The notes: a model not told the origin generated them from the sequence alone. A DNA stretch of 64,000 nt from Gemmatimonadota bacterium (GCA_046728135.1 JBKPDZ010000016.1:6822-70821), one strand, 5' to 3'. Numbered from the stretch's first letter, positions 1,226-8,438 are shown. Numbers and translations: made by a program.

Positions 1226-1729
1226 ATGCACACAGGGCTCTACGTGATCATGGGCGTCTCGGGCTCCGGAAAAACTACGATCGGAGCGAAGCTCGCGCGC
1301 GCGCTCAATCTCGCGTTCCTCGAAGGAGACGACCTGCATCCAGCGCAAAATGTGCAGCGCATGGCGGCTGGAATCCCGCTGACCGATGACGACCGTCGCC
1401 CGTGGTTACTCGCGATCGCGGGTCAATTGCGCGATGCAAAGCGCGCGGGCATGGGTATCGTCGTCGCGTGTTCGGCGCTCAAACGCAGCTATCGTGACCT
1501 GCTGCGCGCCGTCGGGGCCGCGGACGTGCGCTTCGTCTATCTCCAGGGAACCCGCGAACTCCTCGTCGAACGCCTGGCCAACCGGCGCGACCATTTCATG
1601 CCGCCGGCCATGCTCGATAGCCAGATCACAACGCTCGAAGAGCCAACACCGGACGAGCACGCGTGGGTGTGCGATATCCGCGAGGCGCCTGACGCGATCG
1701 TCGCCGACCTGGTAAAGCGGGCGGCATGA
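1226..1729 (+). CDS. gntK: gluconokinase
   Basis: YVIMGVSGSGKTTIGAKLARALNLAFLEGDDLHP..N..KM..G.PLTDDDR.PWL is the GntK/IdnK pattern (P-loop plus gluconate-binding motif). ATGA overlap with the downstream permease. Confidence 0.9.
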   Translation: MHTGLYVIMGVSGSGKTTIGAKLARALNLAFLEGDDLHPAQNVQRMAAGIPLTDDDRRPWLLAIAGQLRDAKRAGMGIVVACSALKRSYRDLLRAVGAADVRFVYLQGTRELLVERLANRRDHFMPPAMLDSQITTLEEPTPDEHAWVCDIREAPDAIVADLVKRAA

Positions 1730-3735
1730 GACCAGACACGCTGCTGCTGCTCTACGCCTTCCTCGCGGTGATTGTGCTGATCGTCCTGATCGCGGGCTTC
1801 AAAGTCCATCCCTTCGTCGTGCTGGTCGCGGTGTCCCTTGCCCTGGGCGCGGTGGCGGGAATGCCGCTGACCGGCGCCGTGAAGGCATTCCAGGACGGCG
1901 TCGGTGGCGTGCTGGGATTTGTCGCGGTCGTGGTCGCCCTCGGCACGATGCTGGGGAAGATGATGGCGGAGTCCGGTGGCGCGACGCGCATCGCGACCAC
2001 GCTCATCGCGCTCTTCGGCCCCGCGCGAGTGCATTGGGCGATCATGGTCGTCGCGTTCATCGTCGGCATTCCCGTGTTCTTTCAAGTCGGCTTCATGCTG
2101 CTCATTCCCCTGGTATTCACGATCGCGCGCCGGACAGGACTGTCGGTGGTGAAGATTGGGATTCCGCTGGTCGCCGGGCTGTCGGTGGTCCATGGCATGG
2201 TGCCACCGCACCCGGCGGCGATGCTCGCGGTCGGTGCCTACCACGCCGACGTCGGGCGGACGATCGCCTACGCGATCCTCGTCGGGCTGCCGACCGCAGC
2301 GCTGGCCGGTCCGATCTTCGCCACATGGATCACGCCGCGGATCCAGCTTCCCGCGGAGAACCCGATGGCCACGCAGTTGTCGGGCGAAGGCACACGGGAG
2401 ATGCCGGGCTTTGCGCTCGCGCTCTTCACGGTGCTGCTCCCCGTGATCCTGATGCTCGCCGCGAGCGCCGCGGACGTTGCACTCGACACCACCAGTGCCC
2501 TCCGCGCCACAGTTGATTTCGTCGGCAGCCCGATCGTCGCACTGCTCATCGCCCTGCTCTTCTCCTTCTGGTCGCTGGGATACAAGCAGCACTTTACGCG
2601 CGATCAGATCCTCAAGTTCGCGAATGACTGCCTGGGTCCCACGGCCACAATTCTGCTGGTGATCGGCGCGGGCGGTGGCTTCAACCGTGTGCTGCTCGAG
2701 AGCGGCGTGGGCAAAGCCGTTGCGGACCTGGCCGTCGGATCGCATGCGTCGCCGCTCCTGCTCGCGTGGATCGTGGCCGCGCTGATCCGTGTGGCCACCG
2801 GCTCGGCGACCGTCGCGATGACGACGAGCGCCGGGATCGTCGCGCCGATCGCGGCCGCGTCCCCCGGCGCGAATGCCGAGCTGCTCGTGCTCGCGACGGG
2901 CGCGGGCTCGCTCGTGCTCTCGCACGTCAACGATTCGGGATTCTGGCTCATCAAGGAGTTCTTCAACATGACCGTGCCGCAGACATTGAAGACGTGGACC
3001 GTGGCCGAGACAATCATCGGCGTCGCGGGATTGGGTTTCACGCTGCTACTCAGCCTCGTGGCGGGGTGCGCGCCCCCCCGCGGACAGGATCTCACGGCTC
3101 AGGGATGGATCGACGTGACGGCGACGCTCGATCCCGCGCGCACGCCGATCTACGAGGGCGATGCGCCGCTGCGATTTGATTTTCTCAAGAACATGAAGCA
3201 GGGCGACAAGCTCACCTTGTCGGCGTACTCGCTGGGAGCGCACAGTGGGACGCACATCGACGCGCCGATGCACTTCATCGCGAATGGCGCTGCGATCGAT
3301 CAGCTGGCGCTCGCGCCGCTGATCGATGCCGCGCGCGTGATCGCAATCGCGGACAGCGTGCAGGCGATCGATGCGGCGGAGCTCAACCAGCACGAGTGGC
3401 GGGGCGCGACGCGCGTGTTGTTCCGCACCCGGAGCTCGTTGCGCGGCTGGATGGACTCGAGCTTCCACCGGAACTTCGCGTACATCGCTCCGGACGCGGC
3501 GCAGCTCCTCGCGGACGCCGGCGTCGTGCTGGTCGGCGTGGACTATATCTCCGCCGAGCAATTCGGCGCGGCGGCGCCGCGGACGCATCAGATTCTGCTG
3601 GGCCGCGGGATTCCCATCGTGGAGGGACTCGACCTGCGACCGGTGCAGGCGGGCGACTACGATCTGATCGTGTTACCGCTCAAGGTCAAAGGGCACGAGG
3701 GCGCGCCGGCGCGCGCGATCGTACGCAAGCGGTAG
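1726..3735 (+). CDS. GntP-family gluconate:H+ permease fused to a C-terminal cyclase / kynurenine-formamidase-like (PF04199-type) domain
   Basis: The first ~445 aa are polytopic and GntP-like, ending ...LKTWTVAETIIGVAGLGFTLLLSLVA. There is no stop, then ~220 aa with the HxGTHxDxPxH metal motif (GAHSGTHIDAPMHF) of the cyclase family. Single uninterrupted ORF of 669 aa. Confidence 0.8.
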   Translation: MRPDTLLLLYAFLAVIVLIVLIAGFKVHPFVVLVAVSLALGAVAGMPLTGAVKAFQDGVGGVLGFVAVVVALGTMLGKMMAESGGATRIATTLIALFGPARVHWAIMVVAFIVGIPVFFQVGFMLLIPLVFTIARRTGLSVVKIGIPLVAGLSVVHGMVPPHPAAMLAVGAYHADVGRTIAYAILVGLPTAALAGPIFATWITPRIQLPAENPMATQLSGEGTREMPGFALALFTVLLPVILMLAASAADVALDTTSALRATVDFVGSPIVALLIALLFSFWSLGYKQHFTRDQILKFANDCLGPTATILLVIGAGGGFNRVLLESGVGKAVADLAVGSHASPLLLAWIVAALIRVATGSATVAMTTSAGIVAPIAAASPGANAELLVLATGAGSLVLSHVNDSGFWLIKEFFNMTVPQTLKTWTVAETIIGVAGLGFTLLLSLVAGCAPPRGQDLTAQGWIDVTATLDPARTPIYEGDAPLRFDFLKNMKQGDKLTLSAYSLGAHSGTHIDAPMHFIANGAAIDQLALAPLIDAARVIAIADSVQAIDAAELNQHEWRGATRVLFRTRSSLRGWMDSSFHRNFAYIAPDAAQLLADAGVVLVGVDYISAEQFGAAAPRTHQILLGRGIPIVEGLDLRPVQAGDYDLIVLPLKVKGHEGAPARAIVRKR

Positions 3736-3736
3736 C

Positions 3737-3826
3737 TCCTAGCTGACCGGGGGCGCCGTGCTGAGCGCGGTGGCAACAAGGATCGCAGTGCGAATCGGCG
3801 CCGCGAGCTTCAGGCGCGTGTTAGGC
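3737..3826 (-). repeat. attC-like site 1 (terminal, most degenerate)
   Basis: Minus strand reads GCCTAAC-ACGCGCCTGAAGCTCGCGGCGCC...GGCGCCCCCGGTCA-GCTAGGA. The R''-like core contains the TAA stop of ORF 3821..4120. The R' core is degenerate (GCTAGGA vs GTTRRRY) and abuts the gntP stop. Confidence 0.4.
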
Positions 3827-4120
3827 CGCACGTTTCGGAGCCAACCCCAGCACGCACAAGATCACGGCCAAGGCCACTGCTGCGCCCGCTTGCCCAACGT
3901 ACCACAACCCTGCTTCCTGCATGATGGCCGCGCTGACATGTGGGTCAAGGAGATCACCGAGCTGCGTCCAAGCCACGATCGCGATGAGAGCCAGGGCTGG
4001 AAGGACCAGCCAGCGCCTAAACCGCACCGCCGCGTAGCCAATCAATCCTAGTGCAGCGGCTCCGCCCCAAATCATTCGGAGGCTGGGTTCCTTGTCGATC
4101 ACTGTGAGCATGAGGTGCAT
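3821..4120 (-). CDS. small hypothetical membrane protein (cassette ORF)
   Basis: 99 aa with three hydrophobic spans (WGGAAALGLIGYAAV, LVLPALALIAIVAW, AGAAVALAVILCVLGL). ATG lies 17 nt after the GTTAGAC core of attC-like site 2. No recognised family. Confidence 0.6.
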   Translation of the reverse strand: MHLMLTVIDKEPSLRMIWGGAAALGLIGYAAVRFRRWLVLPALALIAIVAWTQLGDLLDPHVSAAIMQEAGLWYVGQAGAAVALAVILCVLGLAPKRAA

Positions 4121-4137
4121 TGAAGGGTCTCGTGCAG

Positions 4138-4238
4138 TCTAACGGAGTGCGCCGAAGCCGCGGCGCATGCTTGAAGATTCCACAAATAGAAGACCACCAC
4201 AGCAACACGGCGCCGGCAGCTTCACGCGCGTGTTAGGC
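4138..4238 (-). repeat. attC-like site 2
   Basis: Minus strand reads GCCTAAC-ACGCG-CGTGAAGCTGCCGGCGCC...GCGCCGCGGCTTCGGCG-CACTCC-GTTAGAC. Both cores fit RYYYAAC/GTTRRRY and are mutually complementary apart from one position. The inner arms (GAAGCTGCCGGCGC / GCGCCGCGGCTTC) pair. Confidence 0.6.
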
Positions 4239-4244
4239 GCCGCC

Positions 4245-4736
4245 TCACTCCCACGCTACCCACCTGTAGACGTTGCCGTTCCAGATGAGCCACCCACGGT
4301 GATCCCGCCGCCATTCCGCGACGTAGAGTAGATCGGGGCTGAAGGTCGCATCGCGGAAAGGGTGTTGCGCAGGTTGGACACCCCAACTCCCACACGAGAG
4401 TTCGTCCGTACCGTTGCCCACCGGCCGACCGGCGCCCACGACGTGCACCGAGCGGTCCACCCCATGGATGATCACGAGGCCACAACGGAGGCCACCCCTG
4501 TCCTTGACCTCGATGGCCAGATCGAACAGGCCATCGCGATCGAAATCGCCAACGGCGTACACTGGGTTGAGCTCGGACGACAGCATGAATTGCTGATCGA
4601 GTCCAGCTGCGCGCAGCGCGCTGTCTACCCAAAGCGGGATGGCTCCGAACCTGCTGCGCGAAAGCTGAGCGTTGAGCGGGGCAGCGTGAAGCATCAGAAC
4701 TGCGACGAGAAAGGTTTTGGTCGTCATACCGGTCAT
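4245..4736 (-). CDS. secreted hypothetical protein with FG-GAP/VCBS-like DxDxDG motif (cassette ORF)
   Basis: ORF 4245..4790 trimmed to MTGMTTKTFLVAVLMLHAAPLNAQ (signal-peptide-like). Contains VGDFDRDGLFDLAIEV. Start could also be 4727. Confidence 0.6.
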   Translation of the reverse strand: MTGMTTKTFLVAVLMLHAAPLNAQLSRSRFGAIPLWVDSALRAAGLDQQFMLSSELNPVYAVGDFDRDGLFDLAIEVKDRGGLRCGLVIIHGVDRSVHVVGAGRPVGNGTDELSCGSWGVQPAQHPFRDATFSPDLLYVAEWRRDHRGWLIWNGNVYRWVAWE

Positions 4737-4770
4737 ACGTCCACGGGTCGTCCGTCGTGAAGCGCTCGTT

Positions 4771-5145
4771 TCAATACCTCCATCGTGCATCCTCTTCTCT
4801 TACTTGCTTCATGCGAAAGGCCGCAATCTTGCGAATCAGGGCCTTCGGGAGAGGCTCGTGATAAGGGAACTGAATCGTGTCGTTCCCGGTAGTGTACCTC
4901 TTTAGGTCCTTCCAGAACGGCTCCATCGCAGGATGCGTTACCATGAAGTTGAGATGTGACTTGAATGCCCTGTACGCAAAAAGAATGCGCTCCTCTTCAA
5001 ACACCGGCGATCCCCACTTCAGAGTCTCTGTGGCATTCGGCGCGACCTTCTTCAGAATTGCGCGAATCTCTCGCAAGGTCCGTCGGGCTTCCTTGGGAGC
5101 AGCCTTGATGTAATCGCTAACGGTTGTTGGCTTGGCTCTTAGCAT
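4771..5145 (-). CDS. DUF1801 (YdhG-like) domain protein (cassette ORF)
   Basis: MLRAKPTTVSDYIKAAPKEARRTLREIRAILKKVAPNATETLKWGSPVFE... is the typical DUF1801 N-terminus. Hand count over 4801-5040 gives 126/240 GC, clearly below its neighbours. Confidence 0.75.
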   Translation of the reverse strand: MLRAKPTTVSDYIKAAPKEARRTLREIRAILKKVAPNATETLKWGSPVFEEERILFAYRAFKSHLNFMVTHPAMEPFWKDLKRYTTGNDTIQFPYHEPLPKALIRKIAAFRMKQVREEDARWRY

Positions 5146-5174
5146 GAGGAGCTCGCTTGCAACCAGATCGCGCC

Positions 5175-5268
5175 GCCTACCGGGTCGCGCTTAAGCTGCG
5201 GCGCGCTGAGGAAAAAGGTGTCATTCAATATCCTACGGGCGCCGCCAGCTTCAACGCGCGTGTTAGAC
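5175..5268 (-). repeat. attC-like site 3
   Basis: Minus strand reads GTCTAAC-ACGCG-CGTTGAAGCTGGCGGCGCC...GCGCCGCAGCTTAAGCG-CGACCC-GGTAGGC. The R'' core is perfect. The R' core has one mismatch (GGTAGGC). The inner arms are complementary. Confidence 0.5.
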
Positions 5269-5337
5269 GGCTGATGGGGCATCGAACCATGCCTGGCGTC
5301 GCCGCGGTACCCGCCTAGTAGAACGACGGCATCGCGC

Positions 5338-6456
5338 CTATTCGTTTGGCGTCCACAACACCGCGCGGTTGATGAGCTGGAAGCTGGTGCTGACGCCGAC
5401 GATCTGCCCGGCGTTATTGATCCCAAACGCGCGGCTCCCCAAGTCGTTCGGCAAGGTGCCGAGGTCATGTATGCCGTTGTCGTCCCACAGGGCGGCGTCT
5501 ATGGTCAGGCCGCCGGCGTTGGGGGCAGTGACGATGGCGGTACTCTGGCCCACGATCTGCCCGCGTGCGTTGACGGCCGACGCGTCGCTGAACCCGTCCG
5601 GGCCGGTCAGCGTTCCAAGATCCACGATGCCGCTCTCGGCGGTCCAGCGGAACGCCCGAGGCAGGAACGCGTCGTTCTCGGCGAACCCCACCACGATGCC
5701 GTTCTCGTTCGCGGCCCTTGCGAATGCGCCGCCACACGGGTCGGCGGTGCCGAGCTCGCCAAGGTTTTGGAACCCTCCGCGCAGATCCGCAAGGAACGGA
5801 ATTGTGAAGCCGCAGAATTGGTTCGCCGGGGTGCTGAAGTTACTCCCACCCACGATCTGCTGCCGGTTGTTGATCCCGTGCGCCTGCGAGTTGTCGCCAA
5901 CGACGCTCACCAGGTCCGTGAGACCTTGCTTCGCCGTCCAGAGCAAGGCGTGGATCGATCCGTCCGGGAGATTACTTCTGCCGACCACTTGATCGAGGTC
6001 GTTGATACCCAGGGCGAGCCCGAATCCCCCGCCGAATGTCCCCAGGTCTTGCATCCCGCCCGCCGGCGTCCAGAAGAAGGGACGCTGCTCGCCCGAGGCC
6101 AGTGCGCTCACGCCGACCACATGACTGAGGCTGTTGATGCCATAGGCCCGGCTGAAGGTGCCACCGAGGGTGCCGAGGTCCTTCATGCCGTCGGTCGCTG
6201 TCCAGAGAAACGCGTGCGTCTCGCCCGAGGCCGTCGCGCTGGCTCCAACGACCTGTCCGGCGTCGTTGATCGCCCGCGCGTCCGCGGACGCACCCCCCAA
6301 GGTGCCGAGATCGGCAATGGTGTAGCTCGGCGTCGCCGCCGGTGCGACGTCGGCGCGTAGGCCAGATTCCGCCCGCGGTGACGTTGGTTCACTGCAACCA
6401 GGGGCTCCCAGCAATGCAACAAGCAAGGCCCGCGCGAGTAGCGTCTTGGTCATCAT
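5338..6456 (-). CDS. lipoprotein with HAF-family extracellular repeats (cassette ORF)
   Basis: MMTKTLLARALLVALLGAPGCSEP (lipobox), followed by ~8 repeats of the pattern HAFLWT...GM.DLGTLGG..S.A.GIN..GQVVG. Confidence 0.8.
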   Translation of the reverse strand: MMTKTLLARALLVALLGAPGCSEPTSPRAESGLRADVAPAATPSYTIADLGTLGGASADARAINDAGQVVGASATASGETHAFLWTATDGMKDLGTLGGTFSRAYGINSLSHVVGVSALASGEQRPFFWTPAGGMQDLGTFGGGFGLALGINDLDQVVGRSNLPDGSIHALLWTAKQGLTDLVSVVGDNSQAHGINNRQQIVGGSNFSTPANQFCGFTIPFLADLRGGFQNLGELGTADPCGGAFARAANENGIVVGFAENDAFLPRAFRWTAESGIVDLGTLTGPDGFSDASAVNARGQIVGQSTAIVTAPNAGGLTIDAALWDDNGIHDLGTLPNDLGSRAFGINNAGQIVGVSTSFQLINRAVLWTPNE

Positions 6457-6493
6457 GCTTCCCTCCGAAGTGAAAACATGCTTCCCCTACTAC

Positions 6494-6565
6494 ACACAAC
6501 AGGCGCTGACAGCTTCGAGCGCCACCCCAGATGACGGGCGCGGGCAGCTTCACCGCGTGTTAGGC
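6494..6565 (-). repeat. attC-like site 4
   Basis: Minus strand reads GCCTAAC-ACGCGGTGAAGCTGCCCGCGCC...GGCGCTCGAAGCTGTCAGCGCCT-GTTGTGT. It starts 7 nt after the cupin stop. The R' core has one mismatch. Confidence 0.5.
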
Positions 6566-6572
6566 AGCACGC

Positions 6573-6947
6573 TCACTTTGCGTAATGACTCGCGCCGAGA
6601 AAATGCAGCGATACGTAGGGTTCGTCGCCCACGACCCAACTGTCGTGTGGCTCGGCAGGAATATGAAACAACGCACCCGGCGTGAGCTCCCAAATTCGGC
6701 CATCATCGAAGGCCGCTACTGCCCTGCCCTGTAGCACGAGCCCCAAATGCTCGACACGACAACGCTCAGCGCGGACCGTCGGCCCGACATCGACCGACCA
6801 CTTCCAGCCCGGCTCATAGGTGGCGCGGCCAATGGTCATGCCCCCGATGGTGACAAGTTCAAAGCGCCCGCGCGTAAACGTGCGAACCTCGTCGGGCGCA
6901 TCGAAACGCTTGAGCACAACATCGACTGTCGGACCTTGAGAGATCAT
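6573..6947 (-). CDS. cupin domain protein (first cassette ORF)
   Basis: 124 aa. The stretch EHLGLVLQGRAVAAFDDGRIWELTPGALFHIPAEPHDSWVVGDEPYVSLHF matches the cupin two-motif beta-barrel pattern. Confidence 0.7.
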   Translation of the reverse strand: MISQGPTVDVVLKRFDAPDEVRTFTRGRFELVTIGGMTIGRATYEPGWKWSVDVGPTVRAERCRVEHLGLVLQGRAVAAFDDGRIWELTPGALFHIPAEPHDSWVVGDEPYVSLHFLGASHYAK

Positions 6948-6977
6948 AACGTGCTCTATTCTAGATAGGCGCTAGAC

Positions 6978-8438
6978 CTACTCGCCACCTTCTTTCACAC
7001 GTACAGTCACCCATCTCGCCGCCGCCCGCTGCATCAGCGCTTGCCCGTGCCACGCGCACAAGACCGGTACATCACCCGGCACCTGAACGGCAAGTCGCGG
7101 ATGCGCCAACAAAACCACGAGTGACGCACCGGGCACGAGTCGCGCGAGCTTCGCGACGGACTGCGCTCCAAGATCGGCGCGGCCCTTCCACGATCTCGGC
7201 TCCGCGTAGACCAGTATCACTCGGCTGACCCCGGGGCGGCGCCCTGGGGTCTCCGGGGTCAGCCGAACCCCACCCCCACTCGCGCGCAGCGCGGCATGAA
7301 ACACATCCCGTGGCGGAATCGAATACGGTCCGCCGATATCATCATCCACAATCGTCACGCTAAGTGTCTTGCCGAGCTGCGGCGCCTCGCCTCGTACGAA
7401 ATGCAGCGCCCGATCCGCCAGCCCGTCGCCAAACTTCTGATGCTCGGCCAGCATCGCTTCATCGACCCGTCCCCCGTCCCCCGTCCCCCGTCCCCACGTC
7501 TGCACCGCCGTCTCATACCGCCCGAGCGCCGCTTCGGCCCGATCTGCCGGTACGCTCTCCAATGACTGCACGACACCAGTCCAGTCCGTCGGGTAGAGCA
7601 GCATGTCGCACCCGGCGCTGATCGCCGCCGCCGCCGCCGCGCGCTCCGGTGCCGCCGCGGTCGCGCCCCCCATGATGAACGCATCCGTCACCGTGAGTCC
7701 GCGAAACCCGAGCGTGTCACGCAAATAGCCGAGGATGATGGGAGAGAACGTCGCCGCGGACCCGCTCGCGTCCCAGCGCGGATACGCGACGAACGCCGGC
7801 ATCACGCTGCCGACGCCGGCGTCCACGGCTGCCTTGAACGGCGCGACATCCGCTCGCTGCACCTCGTCGCCGAGCGCCTCGACGATCGGCAGCCCCTCGT
7901 GCGAGTCCGTCGTGGTCCGCCCATGTCCCGGGTAATGCTTGGCACACGCCAGTGCGCCATGCTCCTGGCAACCGCGAATCCAGGCGGTCGCATGCGCCGC
8001 CACCCGCTCCGGGTCAGCACCGAACGAGCGCGTCTGGACGATCGGATTCTTCGGCTCGATGTCGAGATCGCAGACCGGCGCGAATATCCAGTTGAGCCCG
8101 ACCGCACGCGCTTCGCTCGCGGTGATCGACGCCGCGGCGTACGTGGCATCGAGATCGTTGAGATATCCCAGCGCGGCGGGGGGCGGCAGCTCGGTGAGAC
8201 CTCGCACCTGCTGACCCGGCCCACGCTCGAAATCCGAGCCCAGCAGCAGCGGCCGGCCGGCGAGGTCGCGCAGCGCACTCGTGAGCGCGGTGACGGCGGC
8301 GCGGGTGCCGCCAAAGAGAATGAATCCGCCCACGCCGGCCGCCAGCGCCTGCTCGATCTTCGCGCGCTCAGATCTGAACGATCCGCGCCGCCAGCGCAGC
8401 GCCGGACAGACGAGGCGTGCCCGGGGTTCCAGCATCAT
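6978..8438 (-). CDS. nagZ: glycoside hydrolase family 3 protein, beta-N-acetylhexosaminidase (NagZ)-like with extra C-terminal region
   Basis: KHYPGHGRTTTDSHEGLPIV and VMPAFVAYP are GH3 N-terminal domain signatures. Operon context with anmK and murQ. Confidence 0.8.
   Translation of the reverse strand: MMLEPRARLVCPALRWRRGSFRSERAKIEQALAAGVGGFILFGGTRAAVTALTSALRDLAGRPLLLGSDFERGPGQQVRGLTELPPPAALGYLNDLDATYAAASITASEARAVGLNWIFAPVCDLDIEPKNPIVQTRSFGADPERVAAHATAWIRGCQEHGALACAKHYPGHGRTTTDSHEGLPIVEALGDEVQRADVAPFKAAVDAGVGSVMPAFVAYPRWDASGSAATFSPIILGYLRDTLGFRGLTVTDAFIMGGATAAAPERAAAAAAISAGCDMLLYPTDWTGVVQSLESVPADRAEAALGRYETAVQTWGRGTGDGGRVDEAMLAEHQKFGDGLADRALHFVRGEAPQLGKTLSVTIVDDDIGGPYSIPPRDVFHAALRASGGGVRLTPETPGRRPGVSRVILVYAEPRSWKGRADLGAQSVAKLARLVPGASLVVLLAHPRLAVQVPGDVPVLCAWHGQALMQRAAARWVTVRVKEGGE
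7467..7494 (-). repeat. perfect 4x tandem heptanucleotide repeat (plus CCGTCCC, minus GGGACGG) inside the nagZ-like CDS
   Basis: Read directly at 7467-7494. It encodes WGRGTGDGGR in frame. Confidence 0.9.

Follow-up and report, generated by a model that had tools for sequence, protein, structure and literature searches.

A 64,000-nucleotide stretch from a Gemmatimonadota bacterium (GCA_046728135.1, JBKPDZ010000016.1:6822-70821; "the window" below means this whole stretch) carries at positions 3737-6977 an islet of five open reading frames (ORFs) and four repeat blocks, all on the minus strand. We interpret this islet as a cluster of attC sites lacking an integron integrase (CALIN), namely the decayed remnant of a sedentary chromosomal integron anchored at nagZ that has lost its integrase gene (intI) and attI site by deletion, and we assign this reading a probability of roughly 80%. 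The window sites are members of an attC family for which physical linkage to integron integrases was observed.

The four blocks, of about 30 nt each, start at 6565, 5268, 4238 and 3826 and share the minus-strand consensus GYCTAAC-ACGCG-(2-4 nt)-GAAGCT-NNNN-GCGCC. The 11-mer YCTAACACGCG occurs four times in the 64 kb, each time on the minus strand and within a single 2.8-kb stretch. Each block begins 0-70 nt past a same-strand ORF, with stops at 6573, 5338 and 4245 ahead of the first three blocks, and the next ORF begins 17-38 nt beyond sites 1-3. The blocks and their spacing to the ORFs read as the first-pass annotation of this DNA had quoted them. Sites were scored with a covariance model (R1) built from an alignment (A1) of 63 diverse sites of the family, the window excluded, and the whole window was searched with filters off; separate nhmmer profiles were used for the 5' and 3' half-sites. 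Everything in the window outside the array scored at most 18.6 bits with R1. The four sites are listed below.

6494..6565, minus strand: site 1, truncated attC (R1 14.8 bits, E 0.14, within the window background)
5175..5268, minus strand: site 2, full-length attC of the 90-nt class, 94 nt (R1 66 bits, E 4e-15)
4137..4238, minus strand: site 3, complete attC of the 102-nt class (R1 82 bits, E 2.3e-19, aligned over model positions 1-102)
3798..3826, minus strand: site 4, truncated attC, 5' half only (5'-half profile, E 4.8e-6)

By this approach, 5' halves were detected at all four sites (E of 1.7e-3 at 6565, 1.4e-5 at 5268 and 6.3e-8 at 4238, with the value for 3826 as listed), and 3' halves at sites 2 and 3 only. 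Site 3 has the boxes R'' GCCTAAC and R' GTTAGAC, with a bulged G in L''. In site 2 the boxes are R'' GTCTAAC and R' GGTAGGC, so that the crossover triplet GTT is mutated to GGT at a place where the R' box of the family is invariably GTTAGRC. Site 1 consists of a 5' half (R''-L'') at 6565-6543 followed by a weak second partial copy at 6522-6502 (nhmmer E 0.27), and the 3'-half profile found no L'-R' half there. Site 4 abuts the stop (3733-3735) of the convergent gntP-cyclase gene, and its R1 match at 3741-3826 (11.1 bits, E 1.4) lies within the window background.

The initial proposal of a CALIN-like cassette array without an integrase is therefore borne out by the 82 and 66 bits of sites 3 and 2 against at most 18.6 bits outside the array, and requires correction in its details. 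All four sites had been called attC, each with a complementary 3' half; two are complete (one of them with the mutated triplet), whereas the other two are truncated 5' halves whose supposed R' ends, GTTGTGT at site 1 and GCTAGGA at site 4, fall in matches at background level. Folding of each site on both strands had also been suggested. Single-sequence DNA folding returned the expected hairpin for site 2 (long and imperfect, on both strands) and in part for site 1. The Z-scores were weak in this GC-rich background, and comparative analysis was therefore used. CALINs are defined by at least two same-strand attCs within 4 kb of each other with no nearby intI, and possible origins for them have been established (PMC4889954). 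Sites 2 and 3, both supported as attCs by R1 and separated by about 1 kb on one strand, make the islet a CALIN under this definition.

The comparative evidence came from a motif scan (CTAACACGCG-N(2-4)-GAAGCT-NNNN-GCGCC, one genome per species), which returned 90 stretches, almost all from metagenome-assembled genomes (MAGs) of Gemmatimonadales; loci from the scans are designated by L numbers. Many of the stretches are same-strand arrays with a spacing of 0.4-1 kb and up to six exact matches per 8 kb. About 320 complete sites, in length classes of 90, 102, 131 and 141 nt, were found in the scanned loci, and the block of the window corresponds to the 5' half (R''-L'') of such a complete site. 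The 5' arm of the family comprises R'' GCCTAAC, a short spacer, L'' CTT-G-AAGC and the stem CGGCGCC; a conserved central region follows, and then GGCGCCG, L' GCTTAAG(CGC), a 5-nt spacer and R' GTTAGGC. The AAC and GTT columns are invariant in all 63 aligned sites. A structure of 26 bp is 95% paired over these diverse sites, with observed values that none of 500 shuffles reached, and pairing drops to 23-41% in shifted registers. Covariation was detected at several pairs, among them columns 14/111 (25 double changes) and 30/94 (19 double changes). Two bulged bases are positioned on the 5' ('') arm at alignment columns 16 and 23, 6 bp apart, and the L'' bulge is always a G when read in the sense of the ORF and a C on the bottom strand, as at 4223 and 5252 in the window. 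Family sites in ten genome loci, including those with intI, scored about 33-108 bits on R1 at E<=0.01. Window sites 2 and 3 align over their full length to the family model; sites 1 and 4 do not.

Outside Gemmatimonadales, the family was also seen in a few MAGs labelled Haliangiales, Polyangiaceae, Acidobacteria, Verrucomicrobia, Nitrospirales or Eisenbacteria (L002, L011, L029, L057, L061, L069, L070, L077, L083 and L086), which could reflect horizontal transfer or mis-binning. In the long-read MAG MFD02809.bin.1.217, very long family arrays occupy the ends of three contigs. On one of these (CAWHMT010000007.1, 1-24000, covering L072, L066 and L020) the array extends over approximately the first 18 kb and an array of opposite orientation lies at the far end; L043 with L019, L007 and L032 belong to the same observation. 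This arrangement points to an integron that is very large, or made of several parts, and that interrupts assembly.

The link to integrases was examined by tblastn with IntI1 and with the IntI of L037, which scores 449.7 bits on TIGR02249, "integron integrase" (cutoff 265). Homologues of intI were found to adjoin family arrays in L037, L036, L007 and L002. One strand of L037 carries, in order, intI, a GTTAGGC core about 200 nt past its stop, the first cassette and the attC of that cassette; intI is likewise upstream of the array and on its strand in L007 and L036. The intI of L002 is divergent from its array rather than co-oriented. In the 64-kb window no IntI similarity was detected even at tblastn E<=10, in agreement with the first reading of this DNA, and the arrangement of a complete integron, with an intI encoding the IntI domain beside attI and array, is not found there.

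The R boxes of the family covary in cassette phase. The choice of C or T at R'' position 2 shows no association with position 6 of the site's own R' (odds ratio 1.0) and a strong one with the R' one site earlier (odds ratio 36, p 1e-11), as would be expected if IntI crossover at G|TT assigns the last six bases of R' to the next cassette. Within the window, the R' of site 2 and the R'' of site 3 are consistent with this phase; the R' of site 3 and the R'' of site 4 are not.

These results bear on a simpler account, in which the blocks are ordinary intergenic repeats, such as repetitive extragenic palindromic (REP) elements or terminator hairpins, with no tie to integrons. The blocks are indeed GC-rich, partly palindromic and placed just after ORFs, and two of them have no attC 3' half. 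By contrast, the rest of the window (60 kb) has no copy, the strand is the same throughout, and the sequence recurs as the 5' half of about 320 complete sites in arrays beside TIGR02249 integrases, where the R boxes covary in cassette phase. In addition, no T-tract follows the blocks, a scan for promoter and terminator consensus sequences gave nothing above shuffles, and no Rfam family matched: a scan of 3400-7400 returned only a sub-threshold chance match to a snoRNA. To our knowledge, Rfam contains no attC family. We consider this account, which the first-pass annotation had itself named as one of the findings that would overturn its proposal, extremely improbable, and it was rejected on the grounds of strand bias, local confinement, integrase linkage and cassette-phase covariation.

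The position of the array was compared among relatives through the adjoining nagZ gene. In two MAG loci (L049 and L052), nagZ orthologues are also followed by family sites, with different ORFs: three full attCs in L049, and one small ORF with a terminal 5' half-site in L052. Homology among the window, L049 and L052 ends at the last codons of nagZ. Searching metagenomes with NagZ yielded 80 further loci (L091-L170; 69-85% identity), in which all R1 matches were downstream of nagZ and, save for weak reverse-complement echoes of three strong matches, on the nagZ strand. A complete intI directly follows nagZ, in the same orientation, in L096, L114, L134 and L126 (440-446 bits on TIGR02249, cutoff 265). 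Remnants or pseudogenes of intI occupy this place in L162, L120, L095 and L109, the one in L095 comprising residues 12-72 only and being followed by three attCs, and pieces of intI run off the contig ends in L101 and L119. Pairwise IntI identity (76-88%) tracks NagZ identity (74-85%), and a chromosomal integron at the nagZ position thus fits vertical inheritance. L049, L122 and L091 start with a lone 3' attC half just after nagZ, and these halves look like deletion scars. In 56 of the NagZ loci the sequence extends 1 kb or more past nagZ; intI and/or full attCs are present in 14 of these, half-sites alone in 6, and neither in 36.

The terminal half-site of L052 (3856-3884, minus strand) and site 4 of the window are identical at 30 of 30 positions, and the variant GAAGCTCGCGGCGCC that they have in common appears nowhere else among 348 family 5' halves. 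Descent of the two from one ancestral remnant was considered and set aside, the flanking sequence on both sides being unrelated.

On the distal side, the interval between nagZ and gntP measures 1.1, 1.4, 1.9, 3.2 (the window) or 6.4 kb, with GntP orthologues of 85-98% identity. In relatives it is filled by other cassettes, by an intI gene or by an unrelated propeller gene, and it is thus a general variable spot and not solely an integron site. Fixed core synteny of the five ORFs was rejected, as relatives differ in content at this locus and the same five in the same order were not found. The propeller gene (L105 8409-9524; L097 2670-3803) encodes a putative PQQ/beta-propeller protein of about 370 residues, is co-oriented with nagZ and has no attC. 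The features of the islet and its flanks in the window are as follows, in the order of transcription of the minus strand.

6978..8438, minus strand: nagZ-like gene of glycoside hydrolase family 3 (GH3; Pfam Glyco_hydro_3, E 2.6e-65), the upstream anchor, co-oriented with the cassettes
6573..6947, minus strand: cassette 1 ORF, 124-aa cupin-like protein (weak Cupin_2 match, E 3e-5, under the Pfam cutoff)
5338..6456, minus strand: cassette 2 ORF, 372-aa HAF-repeat protein with a lipoprotein-like N-terminus (NCBIfam TIGR02913 HAF_rpt, E 5.9e-56)
4771..5145, minus strand: first ORF of cassette 3, 124-aa DUF1801 protein (Pfam DUF1801, E 3e-13)
4245..4790, minus strand: second ORF of cassette 3, secreted protein of up to 181 aa (homologues in L020 and L062)
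3821..4120, minus strand: cassette 4 ORF, 99-aa membrane protein (homologues in L018 and L092)
1726..3735, plus strand: GntP permease-cyclase fusion gene, the convergent distal flank (Pfam GntP_permease, E 2.7e-161, and Cyclase, E 5.6e-21)

The family assignments made at first pass for both flanks and for the cupin, HAF-repeat and DUF1801 products thus stand. What does not is the picture of an array wedged between two core genes, since relatives keep an integron at this spot and the islet is better described as what is left after loss of intI. The nagZ-like gene is preceded by anmK, the two forming a peptidoglycan-recycling operon, and only 30 nt separate the nagZ stop from the first cassette ORF. 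Site 1 starts 7 nt after the cupin-like ORF, which was not found downstream of nagZ in any relative examined. The HAF-repeat ORF carries internal 132-nt repeats, and the DUF1801 region is a low-GC patch (0.55 versus about 0.66 in its surroundings). No attC remnant was found between the DUF1801 and 181-aa ORFs by profile search or by alignment to homologous cassettes; the true start of the 181-aa ORF is probably near 4736. The stop of the 99-aa ORF (3821-3823) falls within the R'' box of site 4.

Homologues of two of the five ORFs occur as single cassettes in other arrays. Those of the 181-aa ORF (66% identity in L020 and 54% in L062) are single-ORF cassettes, each directly followed by an attC; those of the 99-aa ORF (67-68% identity) are in L018, with an attC after it at 7421-7320, and in L092. 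The cargo as a whole consists of small, promoterless-looking ORFs mostly of obscure role, with no resistance gene.

Two observations concern the flanking genes. The GntP permease and a putative cyclase domain (PF04199, kynurenine-formamidase-like) form a single ORF of 666-669 aa, and this fusion is kept at 90-98% identity in relatives (L097 4286-6286; L105 9526-11532). Within the nagZ coding region, at 7221-7266, lies a perfect 14-nt inverted repeat, TCGGCTGACCCCGG / CCGGGGTCAGCCGA, with an 18-nt loop; compared to L052, the NagZ of the window has a few extra residues at this place.

An array without an intI may also never have stood beside one. An IntI encoded elsewhere could have inserted cassettes at a secondary GTT-type site and could still act as an active partner; secondary-site insertion and mobilisation in trans are recognised routes to CALINs (PMC4889954; PMC8618304). 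The window holds no intI or attI remnant, a GTT immediately precedes the cupin start codon, site 3 is fully canonical, and cassette content varies among relatives, all as this scenario would have it. Yet that GTT belongs to a GTTATGA that makes a poor R' box with no attC-like flank, and it is the only candidate between nagZ and the cupin ORF, where no R' or attI core was detected. Relatives moreover hold intI or its remnants between nagZ and the array, and repeated insertion at the end of the same gene would be unparsimonious. Continuing activity is disfavoured by the truncation of two of the four sites and the mutated GTT of another. We judge this scenario unlikely.

Alternatively, a rearrangement could have split a complete integron, leaving the integrase and the proximal cassettes elsewhere in the genome and the distal part as the islet. 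Splitting by rearrangement is a recognised origin of CALINs (PMC4889954), and the arrays of MFD02809.bin.1.217 are spread over several contigs, one of which has them in both orientations. In the window, by contrast, the array is still joined to nagZ, which is the intI side in relatives, and removal of intI and attI alone amounts to a deletion; the R1 scan of the window found no further attC. A split is very unlikely in our estimation. Because relatives carry intI at the same junction, both scenarios are less parsimonious than loss of intI.

Several points weigh against the remnant of a nagZ-anchored integron as the explanation. Membership of the attC class rests on a family-specific model built here and not on that of IntegronFinder, and minimum-free-energy folding of sites 3 and 4, in the GC-rich background, was no better than shuffles. 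The absence of intI covers 64 kb of the genome. Neither intI nor attI has left a trace between nagZ and the cupin ORF, and the deletion is deduced from relatives with 69-85% NagZ identity, with no scar in the window. Furthermore, those 36 of the 56 relatives show no integron signal downstream of nagZ, and in the nearest relatives with both flanks preserved (GntP 90-98% identical) the propeller gene stands there instead. The integron is thus patchy and may not be ancestral at this locus in the window's own lineage. The promoter and terminator scan is also uninformative on expression by read-through.

On the reading that we favour, loss of intI from a nagZ-anchored integron, the ancestral layout of the clade would have been nagZ, intI, attI and cassettes on one strand, directly downstream of the anmK-nagZ operon. 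Deletion of intI and attI in the lineage of the window would have let nagZ run straight into the first cassette. The attCs would then have decayed, leaving one canonical site, one full-length site with GGT and two sites cut to the R''-L'' half. Four cassette units would remain: the cupin ORF; the HAF lipoprotein ORF; the DUF1801 and secreted 181-aa ORFs, which may have been fused by loss of an attC between them; and the 99-aa membrane protein ORF. The cassettes may now be transcribed by read-through from the anmK-nagZ operon, since they share its orientation at a distance of 30 nt and nothing in the promoter and terminator scan exceeded background. The array appears to be largely frozen, as at most one site would still be usable by an IntI supplied in trans. 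With a single canonical site beside a GGT variant and two half-sites, no cassette is likely to be excised; site 3 could at most serve as a target or partner for such an IntI.

It is conceivable, if rather unlikely, that the family represents an undescribed lineage of nagZ-anchored chromosomal integrons in soil Gemmatimonadales, with co-oriented intI, unusually homogeneous attCs of 90-141 nt and a bulged C on the bottom strand, that possibly works differently. If so, the bulged C may reflect a different reading of the folded site by IntI or a different strand selection, and placement behind nagZ may couple cassette expression to cell-wall turnover. Such a lineage would work unlike the studied Vibrio and class 1 systems, and site 3 might still exchange cassettes through an IntI acting in trans.

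The first-pass annotation was aware of no described arrays for this kind of genome; integrons are already listed for Gemmatimonadota (PMC8618304). Of the Gemmatimonadales attC family and its nagZ anchor, we found no description in the searchable literature. The islet reveals no new mechanism, and its cargo has no known adaptive or resistance role. Its value is that the same junction is seen with a complete intI, with fragments, with arrays only and with lone half-sites, which documents how a CALIN arises and gives direct support to a route, loss of intI, that is usually invisible. The work also provides an attC model and an anchor gene for Gemmatimonadales, which are abundant in soil and for which searchable papers list integrons only at the phylum level, and the model could help to assign soil cassette metagenomes to hosts.

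Compared to known systems, the family sites resemble the class 1 attC of aadA1, verified here in plasmid NZ_CP041112.1, where it starts directly after the aadA1 stop. Both have R'' RYYYAAC and R' GTTRRRY, L''/L' boxes of the form xTT-N-AAGC and GCTTAAx, a pair of bulged bases separated by 6 bp on the '' arm, and a start just past an ORF stop. By contrast, the L'' bulge of the family is G in the sense strand and C in the bottom strand, which is reversed in aadA1 (C sense, G bottom), and the central region of the family is long (90-141-nt classes) and conserved within it.

In layout, the relatives resemble the inverted integron-integrase group, in which intI is co-oriented with the attCs (Boucher 2007, as cited in PMC4889954). 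This group, which is paraphyletic, was described from Treponema and a small number of other taxa. The intI genes of L037, L007, L036, L096, L114, L134 and L126 lie upstream of their arrays on the same strand, and a GTTAGGC attI-type core follows the intI stop in family loci. This layout is seen in relatives only, intI being gone from the window.

The Xanthomonas integron next to ilvD is a sedentary chromosomal integron with a decaying integrase and a fixed position. The chromosomal integrons of Treponema are presented likewise, as sedentary, with decaying integrases and a fixed chromosomal position (PMC3607928). The nagZ locus is similar to these in its fixed place beside a core gene across a clade, its highly homogeneous attCs, its species-variable cassettes, its repeated pseudogenisation or loss of intI, and an IntI divergence that tracks the neighbouring core gene. 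It differs in its Gemmatimonadales host, its nagZ anchor and its patchy occupancy (intI or full attCs in 14 of 56 loci), and the copy in the window has lost intI completely.

Finally, the islet is like the CALINs of Cury et al. 2016 in having same-strand attCs 1 kb apart, no nearby intI and small, promoterless-looking ORFs, and differs from them in that half of its sites are truncated and one carries a mutated GTT. Recognisable intI pseudogenes were found near only 15 of 279 CALINs by Cury et al. (PMC4889954). Unlike for most of those CALINs, the origin of the one in the window is traceable, as orthologous loci keep intI or a pseudogene of it.

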